From assembly GCA_040399305.1 (NCBI GenBank), contig JBBASH010000001.1, forward strand, positions 52,592 to 116,591: a stretch of 64,000 nt of DNA, given 5' to 3'. Shown here piece by piece: positions 3,397 to 41,287 of the stretch (the first letter of the stretch is position 1; the number at the start of each line of letters is the position of its first letter). Both the position numbers and the translations under genes were made by a program. Source of the DNA: Cyanobium sp. Its GTDB lineage: Bacteria; Cyanobacteriota; Cyanobacteriia; PCC-6307; Cyanobiaceae. The notes below the pieces were generated by a model. The model made no database searches. It saw only the letters and a list, made by a program, of their open reading frames with translations, and was not told the origin of the DNA.

Positions 3397-4561
3397 CGGC
3401 CTGGAGTCGGGCGAGGGAGGCGCCCTGGTAGTAGCGGCCGAGGATCTCGTTGTAGCGAAGCCCCTGCTTGGCCAGGTCCTGGGCTCCGGTCTGACTCATG
3501 CTGGCGCCGAGATTGCCGTGGGCCTCCTCAACGATCTGCTGGGTGGCCGCATAGAGGCTCTCCACGATCCCTCCCTGGTAGCTGAGGATCAGCCCGTCGG
3601 TGCTGCTCGTGGCATCCCGGGTGGTGGCGGTCACGCTGGAAAGGCCCTCGTAGTTCTGCCAGCGGGTGGTGTCGCCTAGGTGCCACTGATCGTCGGCCGG
3701 ACGGGCCATGTGGGCCAGGGCGTAGGAACGGGCGGCCACGGCCTGGGCCCGCAGGGCTTCCCTGTTCCAACTGGTGGGCATCTCGCCGCCTACCACCGAG
3801 CTCACGTAGTTCTCCAGCGGCAGGTGATTGATCACCCGCAGACCGTTGCTGCTGCGGAGGATGCGGAGACGGCCTTCATAGAGGCGACCGGCACTGCTGA
3901 GATGGTCGTTGGGACCGGTCTCCAGCCAGACTTCGGATTCCTGGGCGAGATAGGGGGCGGGATCGGGCGACTGGGCCGCCGACCCCTGACGCAGCACCCG
4001 GCCTTGACGGTCAAGCAGCCTCCAGGCACCGGAGGCGGCGAAATCGGGATAGGCGGGCAGCTTCAGCAGAGCCACCCGGATCTCCATCTTGAGGCTGGGG
4101 CCGGCGTCGGGTTCGACCAAGCCCCCACCCGCGCTCGGACGAGCAGCGGCGCGCTGAGCCCGCAGGTTGGGAGGGGCCAGGGCCCCATCCACGGGAGCTG
4201 GAGCCACCATCGCGCCTGCTGCCATGGGCTCGCTTGCGGTCGGTGGAGCCAGGGCATCCGCGGTTGGGGCCAGCGACGATCGGGCTTTCGGGCTAGCGAT
4301 CAGGGTGTCCAGCAGTTCGCCCTCGGCGGCGGAGGTGGCTGGCCGCAGCAGGGCGTTGGCCCCGATGCCAGCTCCCACCGCCAGGGCGGCCAGGGGAGCA
4401 CTGATCAGGAAGGGGTGGCGGCGGAGGCTATGGAGCACGGCAAGCGGGTGGCTGTTCGCCACGCGTCCCACAGCACCGACAAGGGAACCCCATCCCGTTC
4501 TCCACCGGTCTCCGGTGCGGGTGCCCAGCCTGCGGAGGCCGTCCGTAAGGTTCCATCCCAT
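3386..4561 (-). CDS. SpoIID/LytB domain protein (cell-wall remodelling)
   Basis: ATG at 4561. N-terminal TM segment FLISAPLAALAVGAGIGANALL. SpoIID core LENYVSSVVGGEMPTSWNREALRAQAVAARSYAL...ILSYQGGIVESLYAA. Confidence 0.85.
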   Translation of the reverse strand: MGWNLTDGLRRLGTRTGDRWRTGWGSLVGAVGRVANSHPLAVLHSLRRHPFLISAPLAALAVGAGIGANALLRPATSAAEGELLDTLIASPKARSSLAPTADALAPPTASEPMAAGAMVAPAPVDGALAPPNLRAQRAAARPSAGGGLVEPDAGPSLKMEIRVALLKLPAYPDFAASGAWRLLDRQGRVLRQGSAAQSPDPAPYLAQESEVWLETGPNDHLSSAGRLYEGRLRILRSSNGLRVINHLPLENYVSSVVGGEMPTSWNREALRAQAVAARSYALAHMARPADDQWHLGDTTRWQNYEGLSSVTATTRDATSSTDGLILSYQGGIVESLYAATQQIVEEAHGNLGASMSQTGAQDLAKQGLRYNEILGRYYQGASLARLQAGAS

Positions 4562-5387: not shown

Positions 5388-6302
5388 TCAAGCCTCCGGC
5401 CTCAGATCCCTCTCCATCAAGGCCCGCACCGCCCCCTGGGCATCGATGCCACCGTCGAGCAGCAGCACCACCTGTTCACAGATTGGCAATCGCCAGCCCT
5501 GGCGGCGAGCCAGGGCCACCGTGGCCCGGGCGGTGCGCGGACCCTCCACGGTGGCCCCGATGCGGCTGAGGGCCTCCTGCTCCCTGAGGCCACTGGCCAG
5601 CAAGCCGCCGAAGCGCTGGTTGCGGCTGAGGCTGCTGGTGGCCGTAGCCAGTAGATCGCCGAGACCCGCCAATCCGTAAAGGGTGGCTGGTTGGCCCCCG
5701 AGGGCCTTCAGCACCACCCCGATCTCCGCAAGTCCCCGGCAGAGGAGCGAAGCCCTGGCATTGGCCCCCAGCCCCAGACCATCGCTGATACCGGCCGCCA
5801 GGGCCATCACGTTCTTGAGGGCACCGGCCGCTTCCGTGCCGATCGGATCGCTGTTGGTGTAGAGGCGAAGGTTTGGCGTGCGCAGTGCCCTCTGGAGGCG
5901 GCTGGCCAGGTCTGCATCATGGCTGGCGATCACACTCGCCGCCGGCAGACCCCGCTGCAGCTCATCCGCCAGATTCGGGCCCGAGAGAATGGCTGTCGGC
6001 ACCTGGGGAAGCTGCTGCCCCCAGAGCTGGCTCGCGGTGCAGAGCCCTTCGAGATCGATCCCCTTGCTGCAGGAAAGCAGGGGCAGCCCGGGTGGCCAGA
6101 AACGCGCCAGGGAGGTGGCCAGGGGCCGCACGGCGGCCATCGAGACCGCCACCACCACGAGGTCGGAATCCCTCAGGAGGGGCTCGGGGGTTCCGCCGTC
6201 ACGGCGTGACCAGCTGCGCACCTCCAGGCCCTGGTCCCTCCACAGCTGTTCGAGGGTGCTCCCCCAGGCACCACGGCCGAGCAGCGTGAGACGAGGACCC
6301 AT
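5388..6302 (-). CDS. gpsA: NAD(P)H-dependent glycerol-3-phosphate dehydrogenase
   Basis: N-terminal dinucleotide fold LTLLGRGAWGSTL. Motifs SGPNLADE and KNVMALAAGISDGLGLGANA. 304 aa. Confidence 0.9.
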   Translation of the reverse strand: MGPRLTLLGRGAWGSTLEQLWRDQGLEVRSWSRRDGGTPEPLLRDSDLVVVAVSMAAVRPLATSLARFWPPGLPLLSCSKGIDLEGLCTASQLWGQQLPQVPTAILSGPNLADELQRGLPAASVIASHDADLASRLQRALRTPNLRLYTNSDPIGTEAAGALKNVMALAAGISDGLGLGANARASLLCRGLAEIGVVLKALGGQPATLYGLAGLGDLLATATSSLSRNQRFGGLLASGLREQEALSRIGATVEGPRTARATVALARRQGWRLPICEQVVLLLDGGIDAQGAVRALMERDLRPEA

Positions 6303-6356
6303 GGATTCTCAGGCGGCCGCGTCGGAGAAACACGGCATCGGCATGGCGCTGCCATC

Positions 6357-7169
6357 ATGCGCCATCTCCAGATCCCGACCGTGCTCTCCGATCAGCCGCC
6401 AGGGCCCCTGTCGTCGCAGACGGTGTCAAACCCTGGAATTCTTGTTGAGCCACAAGCCACGGATCTGTTCCAGTGGCAGGGCCATGCGCTGGTGGTGGGG
6501 GCTGGCGGCATCGGCCAGGCCCTGGCCGATGGCCTGGCCCACCGGGCAGCGGGGTTGCAGGTCCATACTGCCGGACCGAACCGGGGAAACTGGCGGCTCG
6601 ATCTGGGCGATGACGCCAGCCTTGAGGCGTTCGCGGCGCTGGCCCTGGAGCGCTTCCGCCCGCTGAGGCTGGTGATCTGCACGGCCGGCCTGCTTCACGC
6701 GGGTTCCCTGCAGCCTGAAAAGCGGCTGCTCCAGGTGAACCGCGAGAACCTGAGGCGCAGCTTTGAGCTCAATGCCTTCGGGCCGCTCCTGTTGGCCAAG
6801 GCCCTCGAGCCTGCCCTTCCCCGGAACCTCCCGCTTCACTTCGCAAGTCTCTCGGCGCGGGTGGGCAGCATCACCGACAACCGGCTCGGCGGTTGGTATG
6901 CCTACCGGGCCGCCAAGGCCGCCCAGAACCAGCTGCTGCGCACCCTGGCCATCGAGTGGCGGCGCAGGCTGCCCCTCGCCTGCGTGACCGCCCTCCATCC
7001 CGGAACCACCGCCACAGGCCTCTCGGAGCCGTTCCGCTCCTCCGTTCCACCCTCGGGGTTGTTCTCCCCTGAACGGGCCGCTAACCAGCTCCTGGAGGTT
7101 CTCAGATCGCGCAACGCAGAGCAGAGCGGCGGCTTCGTGGCCTGGGATGGCCAGCCGATTCCCTGGTGA
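6357..7169 (+). CDS. Short-chain dehydrogenase/reductase (SDR) family protein
   Basis: ATG at 6357. Rossmann motif ALVVGAGGIGQAL and catalytic YRAAKAA (YxxxK). The N-terminus is about 40 aa longer than usual for SDRs, so the start is uncertain. Confidence 0.8.
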   Translation: MRHLQIPTVLSDQPPGPLSSQTVSNPGILVEPQATDLFQWQGHALVVGAGGIGQALADGLAHRAAGLQVHTAGPNRGNWRLDLGDDASLEAFAALALERFRPLRLVICTAGLLHAGSLQPEKRLLQVNRENLRRSFELNAFGPLLLAKALEPALPRNLPLHFASLSARVGSITDNRLGGWYAYRAAKAAQNQLLRTLAIEWRRRLPLACVTALHPGTTATGLSEPFRSSVPPSGLFSPERAANQLLEVLRSRNAEQSGGFVAWDGQPIPW

Positions 7170-31229: not shown

Positions 31230-31271
31230 TCCCCTGTGGCACGATCGGGGCAAGACCGTTTCCATCCCTCC

Positions 31272-33956
<2,685 letters not shown>

Positions 33957-34034
33957 TCGGGGGTTCCCGACTGCACTGCCCCTCCGTGACTGTCCCTCCG
34001 TGGGATCGTCGATTTTCTTGAACCCCGTATTGGC

Positions 34035-34232
34035 ATGGACCCGGACAGCCCACCCCCCGGCTCAGACAGCGCCGGCGGAACCGATCTTCGCCGCGAGGCC
34101 CTGATCGCCTCCCTGCGCCAGCGGTTCGCCATCGCCGATGCCCGGGGTGATGCGGAAGCCAAGCAGGCGTTGTTCAAGGAGGCGGTGTACCTCAATCTCC
34201 CGCCTGAACTCTGGCAGGAGCCCCCGGCCTGA
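34035..34232 (+). CDS. Small hypothetical protein (65 aa)
   Basis: ATG start and GC3-rich codons. MDPDSPPPGSDSAGGTDLRREALIASLRQRFAIADARGDAEAKQALFKEAVYLNLPPELWQEPPA. No family recognised. Confidence 0.35.
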   Translation: MDPDSPPPGSDSAGGTDLRREALIASLRQRFAIADARGDAEAKQALFKEAVYLNLPPELWQEPPA

Positions 34233-34312
34233 TCCCATCACCCCCGGCATCGTGGGCAGCGCAGGGCTGTGAGAACCGGGCTGGGGCGGCATTCCAGGAC
34301 TGTTTCTGTGCT

Positions 34313-35080
34313 TTAGGGGAGGTCGCGATCGAGTTGACGCAGCGTGTCGGCCACCTGGTGACGCAGGGTCTGGAAGGGGGTTGAGATCCGCAACTCATGC
34401 AGGTCGCCCTTATCGAGGTCGAGGCTGAGGGTTTGCACAATGCGGCCGGGCCTCGGGGCCAGGATGTGCACCCTCTGGGCTAACAACAGGGCTTCATCAA
34501 TGTCATGGGTGATCAGCAGCACGGAGAGGCCGGTGCTGCGCCAGAGGTTGTGGAGAAACTCCTGCATGGATTCGCGGATCTGCAGATCGAGAGCCCCAAA
34601 GGGTTCATCCAGCAGCAGCAGGCGGGGCTCGGCAGCCAGGGCCCGCGCGATGGCCACCCGCTGCTGCATGCCCCCGGAGAGCTCCCGGGGCAGCCGCTTG
34701 GCTGAATCAAGCAGCCCCACCACTTCGAGATAGAAGGCGGTGCGCTCCCGGATCTGGCCGCGCTCCAGGCCCTTGAGTTCCAGTCCGAAGGCCACGTTCT
34801 CGGCCGCCGTGAGCCAGGGGTAGAGGCTGTACTTCTGGAACACCATGCCCCGATCGGAGCCCGGTCCGCGGATCGGTTGGCCATCGAGGCTGAGGCTACC
34901 GCTGGTGGGTTTTTCCAGCCCTGCCACCAGGCGCATCAGGGTGGATTTGCCCGAGCCCGAACTGCCAAGCAGCGCCAGAAACTGGCCGGTATGCATGGTG
35001 AGGCTGATCTGGTCCAGCACCAGTTGCGCGGCCCTGCCATCGCCGAAACGTTTGCAGACGGAGTCGAGAACCAGATTCAT
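34313..35080 (-). CDS. ABC transporter ATP-binding protein (NitT/TauT family); last gene of the riboswitch-led operon
   Basis: ATG at 35080 (MNLVLDSVCKRF). Walker A GSSGSGKST, signature LSGGMQQRVAIARAL, Walker B LLLLDEPFGALD. Confidence 0.9.
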   Translation of the reverse strand: MNLVLDSVCKRFGDGRAAQLVLDQISLTMHTGQFLALLGSSGSGKSTLMRLVAGLEKPTSGSLSLDGQPIRGPGSDRGMVFQKYSLYPWLTAAENVAFGLELKGLERGQIRERTAFYLEVVGLLDSAKRLPRELSGGMQQRVAIARALAAEPRLLLLDEPFGALDLQIRESMQEFLHNLWRSTGLSVLLITHDIDEALLLAQRVHILAPRPGRIVQTLSLDLDKGDLHELRISTPFQTLRHQVADTLRQLDRDLP

Positions 35081-36940: not shown

Positions 36941-37033
36941 GGCTCTGGGGGATGGAATTGGAACAGATCGGGGTCGTGGAAGGGGATGGCAGAGCGGGTC
37001 TGCGCCGATGGGCAGCAAGGGGCGCTCAGGCGA

Positions 37034-37777
37034 TCAATGGACCGCGCTGAGCAACGCGGCCGACGGTCCGTGCTGATCGGATGCCGGTGCAGCAAGGTTG
37101 GAGCGCTGCGAAGCGACCTGCTCGCGCAGCCACTGGTGCCAGGCCTCCAGGCCTTCGCCGCTGCTGGCCGAAACCTGCAGCACCCGGCAGCGGGGATTGA
37201 CCTGCAGGATGTGTTCCTCGATCCGTTCCACCTGAACCGTCAGGTAGGGCAGCAGATCGATCTTGGTGATCAGCACGCAGTCAGCCTCGCGGAACATCAC
37301 TGGGTACTTGAGGGGCTTGTCATCGCCTTCGGTGACGCTGAGTAAGGCCACCTTGCGGTGTTCGCCCACCTCGAACTCGGCCGGGCACACCAGGTTGCCC
37401 ACGTTTTCAACCCAGAGCAGGTCGAGGCCCGCCGGATCCAGCCGGTCCCGCAGCAGCCGCAGGCCGCCACTCACCATGGCGGCATCGAGATGACAGGCGC
37501 GGCCCGTGGTGATCGGCACCACCGGAATCCCCACGGCCTCCAGCCGTTGGGCATCGAGCTGGGTGGTCATGTCGCCCTCCAGCACGGCCATGGCGAAGTC
37601 TTGAGCCAGATGGGGCAGGCTGCGCTCCAACAGGGAGGTCTTGCCGGCGCCGGGGCTGCTCATCACATTGAGGCAGAGCAGGTTCCAGGCATCGAAGTGC
37701 TCGCGGTTGTGGGCGGCTTGGTGCTGGTTGGCCGCCAATAGGTTGAGACCCAGGGTGTCTTCCAGGGGCATGTGCAT
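37034..37777 (-). CDS. ghaB: HypB-like nickel-GTPase (GhaB-type accessory protein)
   Basis: ATG at 37777 (listed start 37786 is TTG). P-loop [29 protein letters not shown]. No His-rich N-terminal tract. Confidence 0.8.
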
Positions 37778-37782
37778 GGCGA

Positions 37783-38229
37783 TCAAGGACGAAGGGCGGA
37801 GGCGGGGAAGGGTGGGGTCGTGGCTGGGGGGGATTGGCCCACAGGGCCGAGGGATGCCGTGGCGGTGCCGGGTTGCGGGAGGTGGTAGTCCACGCTGCTG
37901 ATCCGCAATTCACGGCCCTGCACGATCTCCTCCATCGGGTGCTCGCAGCAGGGGGAGCGGTAGCCCCTCTCCGGCTCGGGCGCATAGGTGGCAGAACAAC
38001 GAAGGCAGCGCCCCAGCAACGCCACCGGTTCAATCGCCAGTTCCGCCCCCTCAAGCCAGCTATTGCGAATCGCGGCCTGCCAGGTGAAGACCAATTGGTC
38101 GGGCTCCACGCAGGTGAAGGCGCCCACCTGGAGGTGGACGGTGCCAACCCGGGGTACCTGGGGTGTGTGGCTCTGCCTCCAGCCCTCCATCGCCAGGAGT
38201 AGGGCTCGGGTCATGTCGACTTCGTGCAT
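37783..38229 (-). CDS. ghaA: HypA-like nickel metallochaperone (GhaA-type accessory protein)
   Basis: N-terminal MHE nickel-binding motif ([11 protein letters not shown]). Zn-site CLRC, with the second motif appearing as PCCEH rather than CxxC. Pro-rich C-terminal tail. Confidence 0.78.
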
Positions 38230-38233
38230 CGCC

Positions 38234-39430
38234 CTACCTCCAGCGTTGATCGACCTGCATGTTGCAGACCGGATTCAGCCAGGCGGGAGTCTGGCGGCGC
38301 GGCAATTGGCCGCTCACCACCAGGTGGGCCATGGTGTCGCAGATCACGCGGGTGGCCATCAGCGAAGTCATGTCGCTGACGTCGTAGGGAGGGGAAACCT
38401 CCACCACCTCGAGGCCGCAGACCGGCACATTGCGCACGATCAATTCGAGCAACTTCAGCGCTTCACGGGGCAGAAGCCCCCCGGGTTCGGGCCAGCCGGT
38501 GCCGGGCACAAAGCCGGCGTCGATGCAATCGATATCGAAGGAGATGTACACGCAGTCGGTGCCATCGGTGGCCCGCTCGATCGCATAACGGGCCGCCGCC
38601 TCCAGGCCCATGTCACAGATGTCGGTCACGGTGAGCACGTTCGTGCCCCGCTCCCGGCAGATCTTCACCCCCTCCCGAGGCACCTGCCAGCCGCCGATGC
38701 CGAGCTGCACCAAGTTTTCGGCAGGGGCATTGGCCATGTTGGTGGCATGGAACCAAGGGGTGGTGTGCATGCGTTCATCCAGGTCGGTTTCCTGGGTGTC
38801 GACATGGCGATCAAAGTGGATGATGCCCACCTTCTTATCGCCCAAGTGGCGGCAGACACCGCGCAGGGTGGGAAAGCCGATCGAATGGTCGCCGCCGAGG
38901 ATGATCGGGAAGGCGCCGCTGGCGAAGACGTGCGCCACCCCCTTAGAGATCTGATCGAAGCTCTTTTCGTTGTTGGCCGGAATCGTGAAGATATCGCCGA
39001 TATCGCACAACTTGATCTGCTCCCGCAGATCGACACCCATCTCGTAGTTGTAAGGGGTATAGAGGGCTGAGATGCGGCGAATCCCCTGGGGACCGAAGCG
39101 GGTTCCAGGGCGGTAGGTGGTGCCGCTGTCGTGGGGAACGCCAAGAATGGCGACATCGAAATCGCCGACGCGATTCACATCCTCCACATAGGGAGCCTTC
39201 ATGAACGTGTTGATGCCCGCGTAGTGGGGCAACTCACCGCGGGAGAAGGTGGAGATGCGCCGATCCACAATGCTGTCGGCTGCCTCAAGGCCCAAACGCA
39301 ATCCCTGGTCGACCTCCTGCTGCCAGCCGGTGAGCGGCAGGCGCGACTCCTTCTCAAGGGCCCTCAGACCTTCACTGGGATGAACACGCTCAAACCCTTC
39401 CTCGGGGGAAGGTCCGGACACAGAAGCCAT
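38234..39430 (-). CDS. gdmH: Arginase/agmatinase-family hydrolase; candidate Ni-dependent guanidine hydrolase
   Basis: ATG at 39430, TAG stop at 38234. Ureohydrolase motifs GGDHSIGFP, IHFDRHVDT, SFDIDCIDAGFVPGTGWPEPGG. 398 aa with an N-terminal extension. Preceded by a guanidine-I riboswitch and followed by HypA/HypB-like genes. The family call is firm. Guanidine specificity is inferred from context. Confidence 0.75.
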   Translation of the reverse strand: MASVSGPSPEEGFERVHPSEGLRALEKESRLPLTGWQQEVDQGLRLGLEAADSIVDRRISTFSRGELPHYAGINTFMKAPYVEDVNRVGDFDVAILGVPHDSGTTYRPGTRFGPQGIRRISALYTPYNYEMGVDLREQIKLCDIGDIFTIPANNEKSFDQISKGVAHVFASGAFPIILGGDHSIGFPTLRGVCRHLGDKKVGIIHFDRHVDTQETDLDERMHTTPWFHATNMANAPAENLVQLGIGGWQVPREGVKICRERGTNVLTVTDICDMGLEAAARYAIERATDGTDCVYISFDIDCIDAGFVPGTGWPEPGGLLPREALKLLELIVRNVPVCGLEVVEVSPPYDVSDMTSLMATRVICDTMAHLVVSGQLPRRQTPAWLNPVCNMQVDQRWR

Positions 39431-39454
39431 GGAATCGGGGAGGTTGGTTGATCG

Positions 39455-39572
39455 CGGCCTCCCGGGCTTTTATCCCTCCGTGTCATGGACCCTGCCAGGC
39501 AGGAGCCATGGGATTTCTCTTGGACCTGACACCCCTGAACCTGGCGGCTTTGGGACCGGAACCCTAGAAATC
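39455..39572 (-). promoter_or_regulatory. Guanidine-I (ykkC) riboswitch aptamer
   Basis: The minus-strand RNA reads GAUUUCUAGGGUUCCGGUCCCAAAGCCGCCAGGUUCAGGGGUGUCAGGUCCAAGAGAAAUCCCAUGGCUCCUGCCUGGCAGGGUCCAUGACACGGAGGGAUAAAAGCCCGGGAGGCCG. It contains the three conserved ykkC blocks CUAGGGUUCCGG, GGUCC(A/G)AGAG and ACACGG.GGGAUAAAAGCCCGGGAG in the correct order and spacing, with a variable hairpin (CAUGG...CCAUG) between them. It ends 24 nt upstream of the ATG at 39430. Confidence 0.85.
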
Positions 39573-39679
39573 ATGTCCGCAAACCCATGGTGATGGGGGC
39601 GTTCGGGGAGCGTGGTACCAACCGCTACCGATGCCATGGCTCCGCCATCGACCTGCCTGGGTCCACACCTGGGGGCCCC

Positions 39680-41287
39680 TCAGATGCCGGCGTACTGGAA
39701 GCGCAGGCTGGCGGGATCGCCCCAATCGCCCTCAGCCCGGTAACCGCGACTGTTGTGGCAGAGGTGCCTGAGGCTCCAGAAGAGGGGTTCCGGACTGGAG
39801 AGGCCGAGGGTGGAGGCCAGCTCATCGAGGGTTCTGGCGCTGCCATCGCTGAGCAGGGCCTCCAGCCGCGACTGCAAGGCCAGCACCTCGGCGGCGGCCT
39901 TCTTTCCAGCCTCCACACCGGGCTGGTGGTAGGCGTTGATGTCGATCAGTTCGGCGTAGAGACCGACGGCCCGCTCAAAGAGGGCGATCAGGGCACCGAG
40001 AGCCGCGGCATCGAAGCGCCGCAGGGTGATGGTGAGGCTCTGGCGGCCTCCCTCGGCCAGGGCCGAGCGGGTGCCCTGCAGGAAACCCTCCAGGAAATCC
40101 TCGGGTCGCTCTCCGGCGATCGGCCCGATGTCGGCGGGATCGTCGAGGGCCTCAATGAAGGTCACGAAGAAGTTGTCGAGGCCATCACGCAACTGCTGCA
40201 CGTAAGCGTGCTGGTCGGTGGATCCCTTGTTGCCGTAGACAGCCAGGCCCTGGTGGACGGTTTGCCCCTGACGGTCGCGGTCCTTGCCGAGGGACTCCAT
40301 CACCAGTTGCTGGAGGTAGCGGCTGAATACCTCCAGACGATCGCGGTAGGGCAGCACCACCAGGTCGCGGCGGCCCTTGCCTTCGCCAGCGGCATACCAA
40401 GCGGCAGCCATCAAGGCGGCGGGATTGTCCCGCAGGCTCGGGCGCCGGGTGAGGGCATCCATGGCGGCGGCACCGGCCAGGAAGCCGCGGAGGTCGGCAG
40501 CGATCAGGGCGGCGGGCAACAGTCCAACGGCGCCGGTGATGCTGGTGCGACCTCCAACCCAGTCGGGAAGGTCGAAGCGGGCCAGCCAGCCCTCTGAAGC
40601 GGCGAGAGCGTCGAGCTGGCTGCCGGCCATCGTGACGGCCACGGCTTGGCGGGCCCAGTCGCCACCGAGGGCCTCAAGGCGGGCCCGGGCCTGCTCCATG
40701 CCGATGCGGGGTTCCGGAGTTCCGCCGGATTTGCTCACCACCACCACCAGGGTGGTGCGGAGCCGCTCACCCAAGGCCGCCAGGGTGCGGCTGAATCCCT
40801 GGGGATCGACGTTGTCGAAGACATGGAAGGGAAGGCCACGGCCTTCCTGCTGCAGGGCGCGGATCATCAGCAGCGGCCCCAGGCCCGACCCGCCGATGCC
40901 GATCCAGAGCACATCGGTAAAGGGGGTGCCGGCGGGGGAGGCGATCCTGCCGGCCAACAGATCGGAGCCAAAGCTCTCGATCCGATCGGTCTCACGGGAA
41001 ATCAGGGCGCCCGCCTGGGGATCCGGGGCCAGGGAGGGGTTCCGCAGCCAGTAGTGACCGACCTGACGGTGTTCGTCGGCATTGGCGATCGCTCCGCCCT
41101 CCAGGGCCTCCATGGCGGCGAAGGCTGCACTGAAGCGGGGTTCGAGGGCCTCCAGATCGGCGTCGCCGAGGGCCATGCGACTCACATCCAGCCAGACACC
41201 GAGATCCGAGTCATGCCAAAGGAGCGCGCAGAAACGCTGCCAGAGACCAGCGCTATCGCGGTCGTTGCTGAAGGACGGGGACGGCAT
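39680..41287 (-). CDS. pgi: Glucose-6-phosphate isomerase
   Basis: ATG at 41287. VVVSKSGGTPEP, GSTDQHAYVQQLRDG, and INAYHQPGVEAGK at the C-terminal region. Confidence 0.95.
   Translation of the reverse strand: MPSPSFSNDRDSAGLWQRFCALLWHDSDLGVWLDVSRMALGDADLEALEPRFSAAFAAMEALEGGAIANADEHRQVGHYWLRNPSLAPDPQAGALISRETDRIESFGSDLLAGRIASPAGTPFTDVLWIGIGGSGLGPLLMIRALQQEGRGLPFHVFDNVDPQGFSRTLAALGERLRTTLVVVVSKSGGTPEPRIGMEQARARLEALGGDWARQAVAVTMAGSQLDALAASEGWLARFDLPDWVGGRTSITGAVGLLPAALIAADLRGFLAGAAAMDALTRRPSLRDNPAALMAAAWYAAGEGKGRRDLVVLPYRDRLEVFSRYLQQLVMESLGKDRDRQGQTVHQGLAVYGNKGSTDQHAYVQQLRDGLDNFFVTFIEALDDPADIGPIAGERPEDFLEGFLQGTRSALAEGGRQSLTITLRRFDAAALGALIALFERAVGLYAELIDINAYHQPGVEAGKKAAAEVLALQSRLEALLSDGSARTLDELASTLGLSSPEPLFWSLRHLCHNSRGYRAEGDWGDPASLRFQYAGI

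Follow-up and report, generated by a model that had tools for sequence, protein, structure and literature searches.

A leader with a guanidine-I riboswitch was analysed in a stretch of DNA from Cyanobium sp. (GenBank assembly GCA_040399305.1, contig JBBASH010000001.1, positions 52,592 to 116,591 of the forward strand); the whole stretch of 64,000 nucleotides (nt) is referred to as the window, and positions are counted from its first letter. It lies, on the minus strand, in the gap that separates pgi (41335-39680) from an arginase-family open reading frame (39430-38234) identified here as gdmH, a guanidine hydrolase gene. It contains a complete guanidine-I (ykkC subtype 1) aptamer, has neither a terminator nor a Shine–Dalgarno (SD) sequence between aptamer and start codon, and shares with its picocyanobacterial relatives a conserved promoter geometry and two conserved complementary tails, GCGG and CCGC, which flank the aptamer and could close it as a helix (P0). 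Taken as a whole, it is best explained, at somewhat better than even confidence, as an NtcA-driven, guanidine-gated translational ON leader of gdmH-ghaA-ghaB, possibly extending to gimABC.

Identification and anatomy of the aptamer

Rfam cmscan was run over the whole window. A match to RF00442 (Guanidine-I) was obtained at 39578-39457 on the minus strand (73.7 bits, E 3.3e-11, against a gathering score of 63 bits); it covered the full model (positions 1-107 of 107) and was the sole Rfam family above gathering score in the 64 kb. With the cutoff relaxed to E ≤ 10, no other ykkC subtype came up in 39380-39680, and the models of the riboswitches for PRPP (phosphoribosyl pyrophosphate) and ppGpp (guanosine tetraphosphate) gave no match in this interval even at that threshold. 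The elements of the leader, in the direction of transcription, are as follows.

39615..39628, minus strand: NtcA-type box GTAGCGGTTGGTAC (GTA-N8-TAC), a perfect match; putative NtcA-binding site
39587..39592, minus strand: −10-like hexamer CACCAT, a weak match with a tentative assignment
39577..39580, minus strand: GCGG, 5′ strand of candidate P0 and predicted 5′ end of the transcript; conserved
39457..39578, minus strand: guanidine-I (ykkC subtype 1) aptamer; RF00442 match, with covariation in P1, the base of P1b and P2
39572-39567 / 39517-39512, minus strand: P1; covariation
39567-39557, minus strand: aptamer block 1 CUAGGGUUCCG, read in the sequence
39526-39517, minus strand: aptamer block 2 GGUCCAAGAG, read in the sequence
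39510-39484, minus strand: P2 hairpin CAUGGCUCCUGCC/GGCAGGGUCCAUG, between blocks 2 and 3; covariation
39483-39459, minus strand: aptamer block 3 ACACGGAGGGAUAAAAGCCCGGGAG, read in the sequence
C39482-G39462, minus strand: P3, with GGG 39476-39474 opposite CCC 39466-39464
39454..39457, minus strand: CCGC, 3′ strand of candidate P0, within a conserved RCCGC
39431..39453, minus strand: spacer, C-rich and without an SD sequence, and translation initiation region, which pairs with the P3 strands in the folding ensemble

All conserved blocks of the guanidine-I class were intact, in a P1/P1a/P1b/P2/P3 architecture. An initial annotation, made by reading the letters of the window, had proposed a guanidine-I riboswitch upstream of an arginase-family gene, with three conserved blocks on the minus strand and a hairpin between the second and third; each of these elements was present, and the search with the Rfam covariance model that it had suggested as a check gave the significant match above gathering score described above, with no competing subtype and with covariation. 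Its distance of 24 nt from the aptamer to the ATG has to be corrected to 26 nt, counted from the Rfam 3′ end at 39457.

Subtype 2 ykkC aptamers carry a pyrimidine where guanidine-I has an adenosine (A46 of the Reiss structure). Block 2 of the window has A at both consensus adenosine positions and no pyrimidine at the discriminator position, if the crystal numbering is placed onto it as we infer. The sole deviation from the consensus, GGUCCAAGAG in place of GGUCCGAGAG, is a G-to-A change that is a common polymorphism (17 of 111 other metagenomic aptamers). By identity, the element is almost certainly a genuine guanidine-I riboswitch. Because the discriminator is A, no subtype 2 model matches and the gene context is that of a guanidine hydrolase, the aptamer is regarded as still of the guanidine type; by analogy with characterized members, guanidine binding and a guanidine-dependent response of the gene would be expected.

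Covariation and distribution among relatives

For comparison, 80 genomic loci with close relatives of the downstream protein were fetched, and in at least 62 of them the aptamer lay directly upstream of the gene. Covariation was assessed in an alignment of the window with 29 picocyanobacterial leaders (n = 30). The Rfam helices were 97.8% paired across these leaders, with both-sided changes at 10 pairs; none of 500 column shuffles reached the observed covariation, and sliding the 3′ partners by ±1 column lowered the pairing to 53-56%. The P2 hairpin formed in every leader despite unrelated sequences, the same picture being obtained by anchor-based extraction; P3 was invariant and therefore uninformative for covariation. 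In the Cyanobium/Synechococcus clade, selection acts on the structure of the aptamer.

Four Prochlorococcus loci (L030, L031, L036 and L045) have kept gdmH at 83-84% identity. Their regions upstream of the gene (upstream of position 6001) are AT-rich, lack the aptamer blocks and gave no RF00442 match at gathering score; Prochlorococcus has apparently lost the riboswitch. At a further locus, from Synechococcus sp. MIT S9452 (L002:5820-6003), the NtcA-like box GTATCGCCTGTTAC, GCGGA and AAAAGCCTGGGAGACCGC are retained, degeneration affects block 1 (GATAGGCGGTTTG) as well as the ACGGAGGGA block, and Rfam gave no match; this leader looks like a decayed riboswitch and may represent a natural loss-of-sensing variant. 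Some contigs (L078, at 3543-3658 and 6356-6470; L153; L161) carry two guanidine-I aptamers a few kilobases apart, which presumably control separate transcription units of guanidine genes.

Two classes of expression platform

The gdmH leaders fell into two classes. In class A, which comprises the non-picocyanobacterial leaders, GCCCGGGAG is followed by a hairpin and by CUyCyGGGCUUU with a U-run; this downstream element is a terminator that competes for the 3′ strand of P3. An anti-P3 strand with a T-run was present in 31 of 33 class A leaders, as against none of the 30 leaders of class B (the window and its Cyanobium/Synechococcus relatives), and the distance from the GGGAG of the aptamer to the ATG was 64-176 nt in class A and 22-38 nt in class B. 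The window, with its ATG 28 nt after GGGAG, thus differs from the non-picocyanobacterial leaders in having neither the terminator nor the long distance and in carrying the GCGG/CCGC tails instead. No terminator-like site was found on the minus strand in 38800-40200, and no SD sequence was seen before the gdmH ATG, in agreement with the initial annotation, which had noted the lack of a U-tract and of a clear SD sequence and had rightly left the expression platform open. Use of GGGAGG as a distant SD sequence was considered and rejected, since 27 nt separate it from the ATG and there is neither a nearer start codon nor a hairpin that would compact the interval.

Many non-cyanobacterial guanidine-I leaders among the metagenome matches (L083-L202) show no clear U-run after the anti-P3 strand (e.g. 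UCUCUCG) and have GGAG some 10 nt ahead of the ATG. Translational platforms may be commoner in the guanidine-I class than is suggested by reviews.

Promoter and predicted transcript start

The GTA-N8-TAC box at 39628-39615 is the only one in the window, where 0.33 would be expected, and it falls within the gap of about 100 nt between pgi and the aptamer. In the canonical geometry of NtcA promoters the box stands ∼22 nt before the −10 element and is centred at −41.5; CACCAT starts exactly 22 nt past the box of the window. Relatives have nAnnnT at the position of this hexamer, and in 29 of the 30 leaders a GT-N10-AC box ends 34-35 nt ahead of GCGGA. When the canonical centring at −41.5 is applied to the position of the box, the transcript is predicted to start (+1) at G39580 of GCGGA, which precedes the Rfam match by two bases. 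NtcA binding, activation by NtcA and a transcription start site at G39580 are thus predicted from the sequence; an NtcA-dependent promoter has been demonstrated for gdmH of Synechocystis (PMC12704784).

A candidate closing helix

On the 5′ side of P1, GCGGA was invariant in all 30 genomic class B leaders, as was GCGG in all 17 metagenomic ones; RCCGC, directly 3′ of GGGAG, was invariant in the same 30 and 17. GCGGA occurred in none of the 29 genomic terminator-type leaders and in one of the 106 leaders from metagenomes that have other tails. In minimum free-energy (MFE) structures of the isolated aptamer domain, GCGG was paired with CCGC in 27 of 30 sequences, with a base-pair probability of 0.99 in the window. 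An alternative pairing of GCGGA with the spacer was weaker than the pairing with P3 described below and was discarded.

Such a helix is structurally plausible. Within the ykkC fold, a P0 helix is known so far only from the PRPP and ppGpp aptamers, which share the ykkC fold and in which the 5′ and 3′ tails form P0 to give a P0/P1/P2/P3 four-way junction that is coupled to the platform (PMC6031431). The candidate GCGG:CCGC helix would share the topology of P0 in subtypes 2a/2b (PDB entries 6CK5/6CK4; PMC6031431). Subtype 2 has a pyrimidine as discriminator and uses P0 to extend its binding pocket for a larger ligand, whereas the window combines a candidate P0 with an A at this position and a guanidine context.

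Proposed mechanism

Under nitrogen limitation, an NtcA-activated promoter would fire and the RNA would start at GCGGA (∼39580), its first ∼125 nt folding into the guanidine-I aptamer. Guanidine would stabilize P3 and its docking onto P1a and probably also the 4-base-pair (bp) P0, formed by the first four nucleotides of the transcript (GCGG) with CCGC on the 3′ side of the aptamer. Closed P0 would enclose the aptamer and keep the G-rich P3 strands from the C-rich, SD-less initiation region; since pairing between the inside and the outside would have to cross P0, its closure would insulate the initiation region topologically. The ATG, 23 nt past P0, would then be accessible to the ribosome (switch ON). 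Without guanidine, P3 and P0 would open, GGGAGG and GGGAU would pair with CCUCCC and AUUCC (−13..−1), and this pairing at the start region would block the 30S subunit (switch OFF). With an NtcA-driven transcript and a guanidine ON switch, expression would therefore require both low nitrogen and guanidine.

A translational model of this kind, with P0, would explain why the terminator was lost, why aptamer and ATG are so closely spaced and why GCGG/CCGC is specific to the clade. The separate parts of the proposal differ in strength. ON logic, argued from Synechocystis, is very probable. Translational control through P0, with P0 formation as a predicted step, stands at about even chances. We suggest more tentatively, and at rather less than even confidence, that in picocyanobacteria the guanidine-I riboswitch has been remodelled as a compact translational switch, with neither terminator nor SD sequence, in which P0 insulates the start only when guanidine is bound; a class of riboswitch that is normally transcriptional would then have moved, in this lineage alone, to control at translation within a phylum that lacks Rho.

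Pairing of the start region and folding analysis

In the window, two short pairings connect P3 with the start region: GGGAGG (39463-39458) with CCUCCC (39443-39438), of 6 bp, and GGGAU (39476-39472) with AUUCC (39435-39431). In partition-function folds, nucleotides −18..+12 paired mainly with the two P3 strands, with means over the leaders of 0.18 and 0.10; in the window the values were 0.26 and 0.22 (48%), with no other partner, and P3 was the main ensemble partner of the initiation region in most lineages. Both pairings were kept through sequence change in the closest relatives (UCUCCC/AUCCU in L106 and CCUCCC/AUCCC in L143), and a striking 9 bp pairing between spacer and P3, CUCCGUGCA:UGCACGGAG, was found in L018/L029. 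Across lineages, the complementarity between spacer and P3 exceeded that of dinucleotide-preserving shuffles (Fisher p 0.003; z < 0 in 16 of 20). The pairing of CCCGGGAGG with CCUCCCCG near the start codon, put forward in the initial annotation, accordingly exists as a 6 bp helix and is kept in the closest relatives; in the window taken alone, it does not rise above the chance level of a C-rich spacer.

Two further structures were discarded. The long helix of the MFE structure, which joins the 3′ arm of P2 and the 5′ strand of P3 to codons 2-7, was rejected because the close relative L143 does not have it and because the MFE structure misses the native aptamer. CCAUGGCU at the start codon, considered as a mimic of the 5′ arm of P2, was not kept in relatives.

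Several observations weigh against a translational switch closed by P0. GCGG and CCGC were invariant in all 47 class B leaders, a scan of metagenomes for variants included, and because they never vary there is no covariation evidence for or against P0; GCGGA could be conserved merely as an initiation sequence. The duplex energy of spacer and P3 in the window was no better than that of shuffles (z −0.27, p 0.36). A test of accessibility, in which the unpaired probability of −15..+6 was compared with that of shuffled spacers with the aptamer free or locked, gave no signal for the window (0.57 versus 0.54) and a weak trend at the level of the family. C makes up 50% and G 14% of the spacer, in a window of 66.8% G+C, and at least 10 of 40 genes here have C-rich leaders (C–G skew ≥ 0.3 in the 30 nt before the start); a C-rich, G-poor spacer was therefore not accepted as a special signal, and because such leaders are common in the genome the complementarity between spacer and P3 may come free. 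RNAfold failed to recover the native aptamer, with z-scores near 0. Since the native aptamer is missed, the z-score of the window is weak and C-rich leaders are common, the energy-based evidence is only suggestive. From the literature, guanidine-I riboswitches usually act transcriptionally by disruption of an intrinsic terminator (PMC12186494), a transcriptional mechanism is the one proposed for the Synechocystis gdmH leader (PMC12704784) and high-GC species tolerate short U-tracts (PMC13613805).

Alternative mechanisms

One alternative is a transcriptional ON switch with a degenerate terminator. In this case, the hairpin GGGAGG-N14-CCUCCC (39463-39438) would pause or terminate RNA polymerase before the ATG when ligand is absent, and guanidine would prevent its formation by locking P3. 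The hairpin corresponds to the upper part of the class A terminator stem and shares the 3′ strand of P3 with those terminators, in keeping with the terminator disruption that is normal for guanidine-I and proposed for Synechocystis. Its stem has just 6 bp, with a loop of 14 nt, and is followed by CGAUUCC without a U-run; the terminator scan of the minus strand was empty and none of the 30 class B leaders has a T-rich tail. In many class B lineages the spacer pairs instead with the 5′ strand of P3, so that the hairpin is not conserved, and the tight spacing of 22-38 nt between aptamer and ATG points to the ribosome. We consider this mechanism unlikely.

Control of mRNA stability is less probable still. 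Guanidine would pair the 5′-terminal GCGG into P0 and/or bury cleavage sites, shielding the RNA from 5′-end-dependent attack by RNase E/J. P0 would involve the extreme 5′ end of the predicted RNA, guanidine-III has been reported to control the access of RNase E (PMC12186494) and control of this kind would be compatible with simultaneous translational control; nothing in the sequence specifically demands it.

Altered specificity of a subtype 2-like kind, or a decaying relic without regulatory role, is very improbable. The first is suggested by the P0-like helix, because P0 is characteristic of subtypes 2a/2b and, according to PMC6031431, is not a conserved feature of guanidine aptamers, and the second by the decayed aptamer of the relative L002. 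Against altered specificity stand the adenosines at both consensus positions of block 2, where subtype 2 has a pyrimidine, the lack of a PRPP or ppGpp model match at E ≤ 10, the guanidine hydrolase context and the common occurrence of the G-to-A variant as a natural polymorphism; a relic would not be expected to retain intact conserved blocks and covarying helices. Finally, Rho-dependent attenuation, a mechanism that the initial annotation had allowed for and that would use the spacer as a rut site exposed in the unliganded state, is hardly credible: the composition of the spacer is rut-like, but no functional Rho homologue has been detected in cyanobacteria and RUT-like signatures are missing from unicellular or marine cyanobacterial lineages (PMC13613805), and the tract is merely ∼23 nt long in a genome where C-rich leaders are common.

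Downstream genes

The leader precedes a cluster of genes, all on the minus strand.

38234..39430, minus strand: gdmH, guanidine hydrolase (arginase family, PF00491), ATG at 39430-39428
37783..38229, minus strand: ghaA, HypA-like Ni chaperone (PF01155/TIGR00100)
37034..37786, minus strand: ghaB, HypB-like GTPase (TIGR00073, 277 bits), with a 4 nt overlap with ghaA
34313..36940, minus strand: gimABC-type ABC importer
36940-35918, minus strand: substrate-binding protein of the gimABC-type importer, SsuA/NMT1-type
35900-35109, minus strand: permease of the gimABC-type importer, TauC-like
35125-34313, minus strand: ATPase of the gimABC-type ABC importer

The gdmH product was matched to Synechocystis Sll1077 (PDB entries 7esr/7oi1) with E 2.7e-228, ungapped over residues 18-398 and with 84.0% identity over 381 amino acids; the next-best PDB families, proclavaminate amidinohydrolase and guanidinobutyrase, reached only ∼1e-49. 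As judged from its sequence, the downstream gene is a close GdmH/Sll1077 orthologue and not a generic arginase, so that its earlier description as an arginase-family gene holds at the level of PF00491 and can be made more exact. Sll1077 is an Ni-dependent guanidine hydrolase that yields urea and ammonium (PMC12704784; PMC12186494), and the same reaction is predicted for GdmH of the window. GhaA and GhaB load Ni into Synechocystis GdmH and GimABC (sll1080-1082) is a high-affinity guanidine importer (PMC12704784); the order gdmH, ghaA, ghaB, gimABC is that of sll1077-sll1082. With this cluster, the uncultured Cyanobium-like organism is confirmed to have a full guanidine-assimilation module, which is predicted to be under dual control by NtcA (low nitrogen) and the riboswitch (guanidine).

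Between gdmH and ghaA there are 4 nt, and a GGAGG SD sequence stands 7 nt before the ghaA ATG, within the last codons of gdmH (38230-38245). Since ghaA has this canonical GGAGG, SD-dependent initiation is present in the genome in which gdmH itself is SD-less. The gap between ghaB and gimA measures 93 nt (36941-37033) and no NtcA-like box was found in it, so that gimABC may share its transcript with gdmH. At 34313 the cluster ends, and directly after it comes the convergent leuS (31236-33956, plus strand), with no Rieske gene at 33956-34313. No tRNA was found in the 64 kb window.

Relation to known systems

The gdmH leader of Synechocystis sp. PCC 6803 was validated in 2025, with a Kd for guanidine of ∼58 µM and a 4-5-fold ON response of a GFP reporter (PMC12704784). 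The window has in common with the Synechocystis gdmH (sll1077) system (PMC12704784; PMC8390497) the aptamer family, an 84%-identical enzyme, the Ni chaperones, the importer and the gene order. Synechocystis also has an NtcA box upstream, and the expected logic is alike, ON with guanidine under nitrogen limitation; it differs in that its gimABC has an NtcA promoter of its own, whereas none was seen upstream of gimA in the window.

Within the clade, Dore et al. (2023) reported that reference genomes of marine Synechococcus carry a ykkC riboswitch directly upstream of the speB2-hypAB-ABC cluster, Syn-eCAG_001 (PMC10119275). Element, clade and downstream gene cluster are the same as in the window, and the element was described there without the anatomy of promoter or expression platform; a Rieske Fe–S gene lies downstream in most of the Synechococcus/Cyanobium genomes, whereas the window has the convergent leuS instead. 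A 2026 survey likewise described ykkC adjoining speB in cyanobacteria. The pairing of riboswitch and operon is thus correct but not new, since it has been published for Synechocystis and, in 2023, for Synechococcus. The initial annotation had regarded the riboswitch as useful for assigning a function to the whole operon; it is not needed for this because enzyme and operon have already been characterized, the function having been assigned in the literature and carried over here by GdmH/Sll1077 orthology. The compact platform with its candidate P0 may be the only new part.

Canonical RF00442 riboswitches resemble the element of the window in the full-length match, the conserved blocks and the helix architecture. 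They usually disrupt an intrinsic terminator, whereas the window has no terminator and no SD sequence and carries extra conserved tails at both ends. The logic proposed here is similar to that of the add adenine riboswitch of Vibrio vulnificus, a translational ON switch in which the 3′ half of the unliganded aptamer pairs with the initiation region, so that closure by the ligand frees the start. Fold and ligand differ and add has an SD sequence; the likeness is an analogy alone.

Biological implications

The system of the window adds to the case for guanidine as a real source of nitrogen in picocyanobacteria. If control is translational, the riboswitch would gate gdmH directly and ghaA/ghaB by coupling, and not necessarily the whole operon. 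If the compact design with P0 is true, it would be a case in which one aptamer class has acquired a different output mechanism in a lineage of high GC and without Rho, and it would provide a very short (∼150 nt) guanidine-inducible translational element for the engineering of marine and freshwater Synechococcus.

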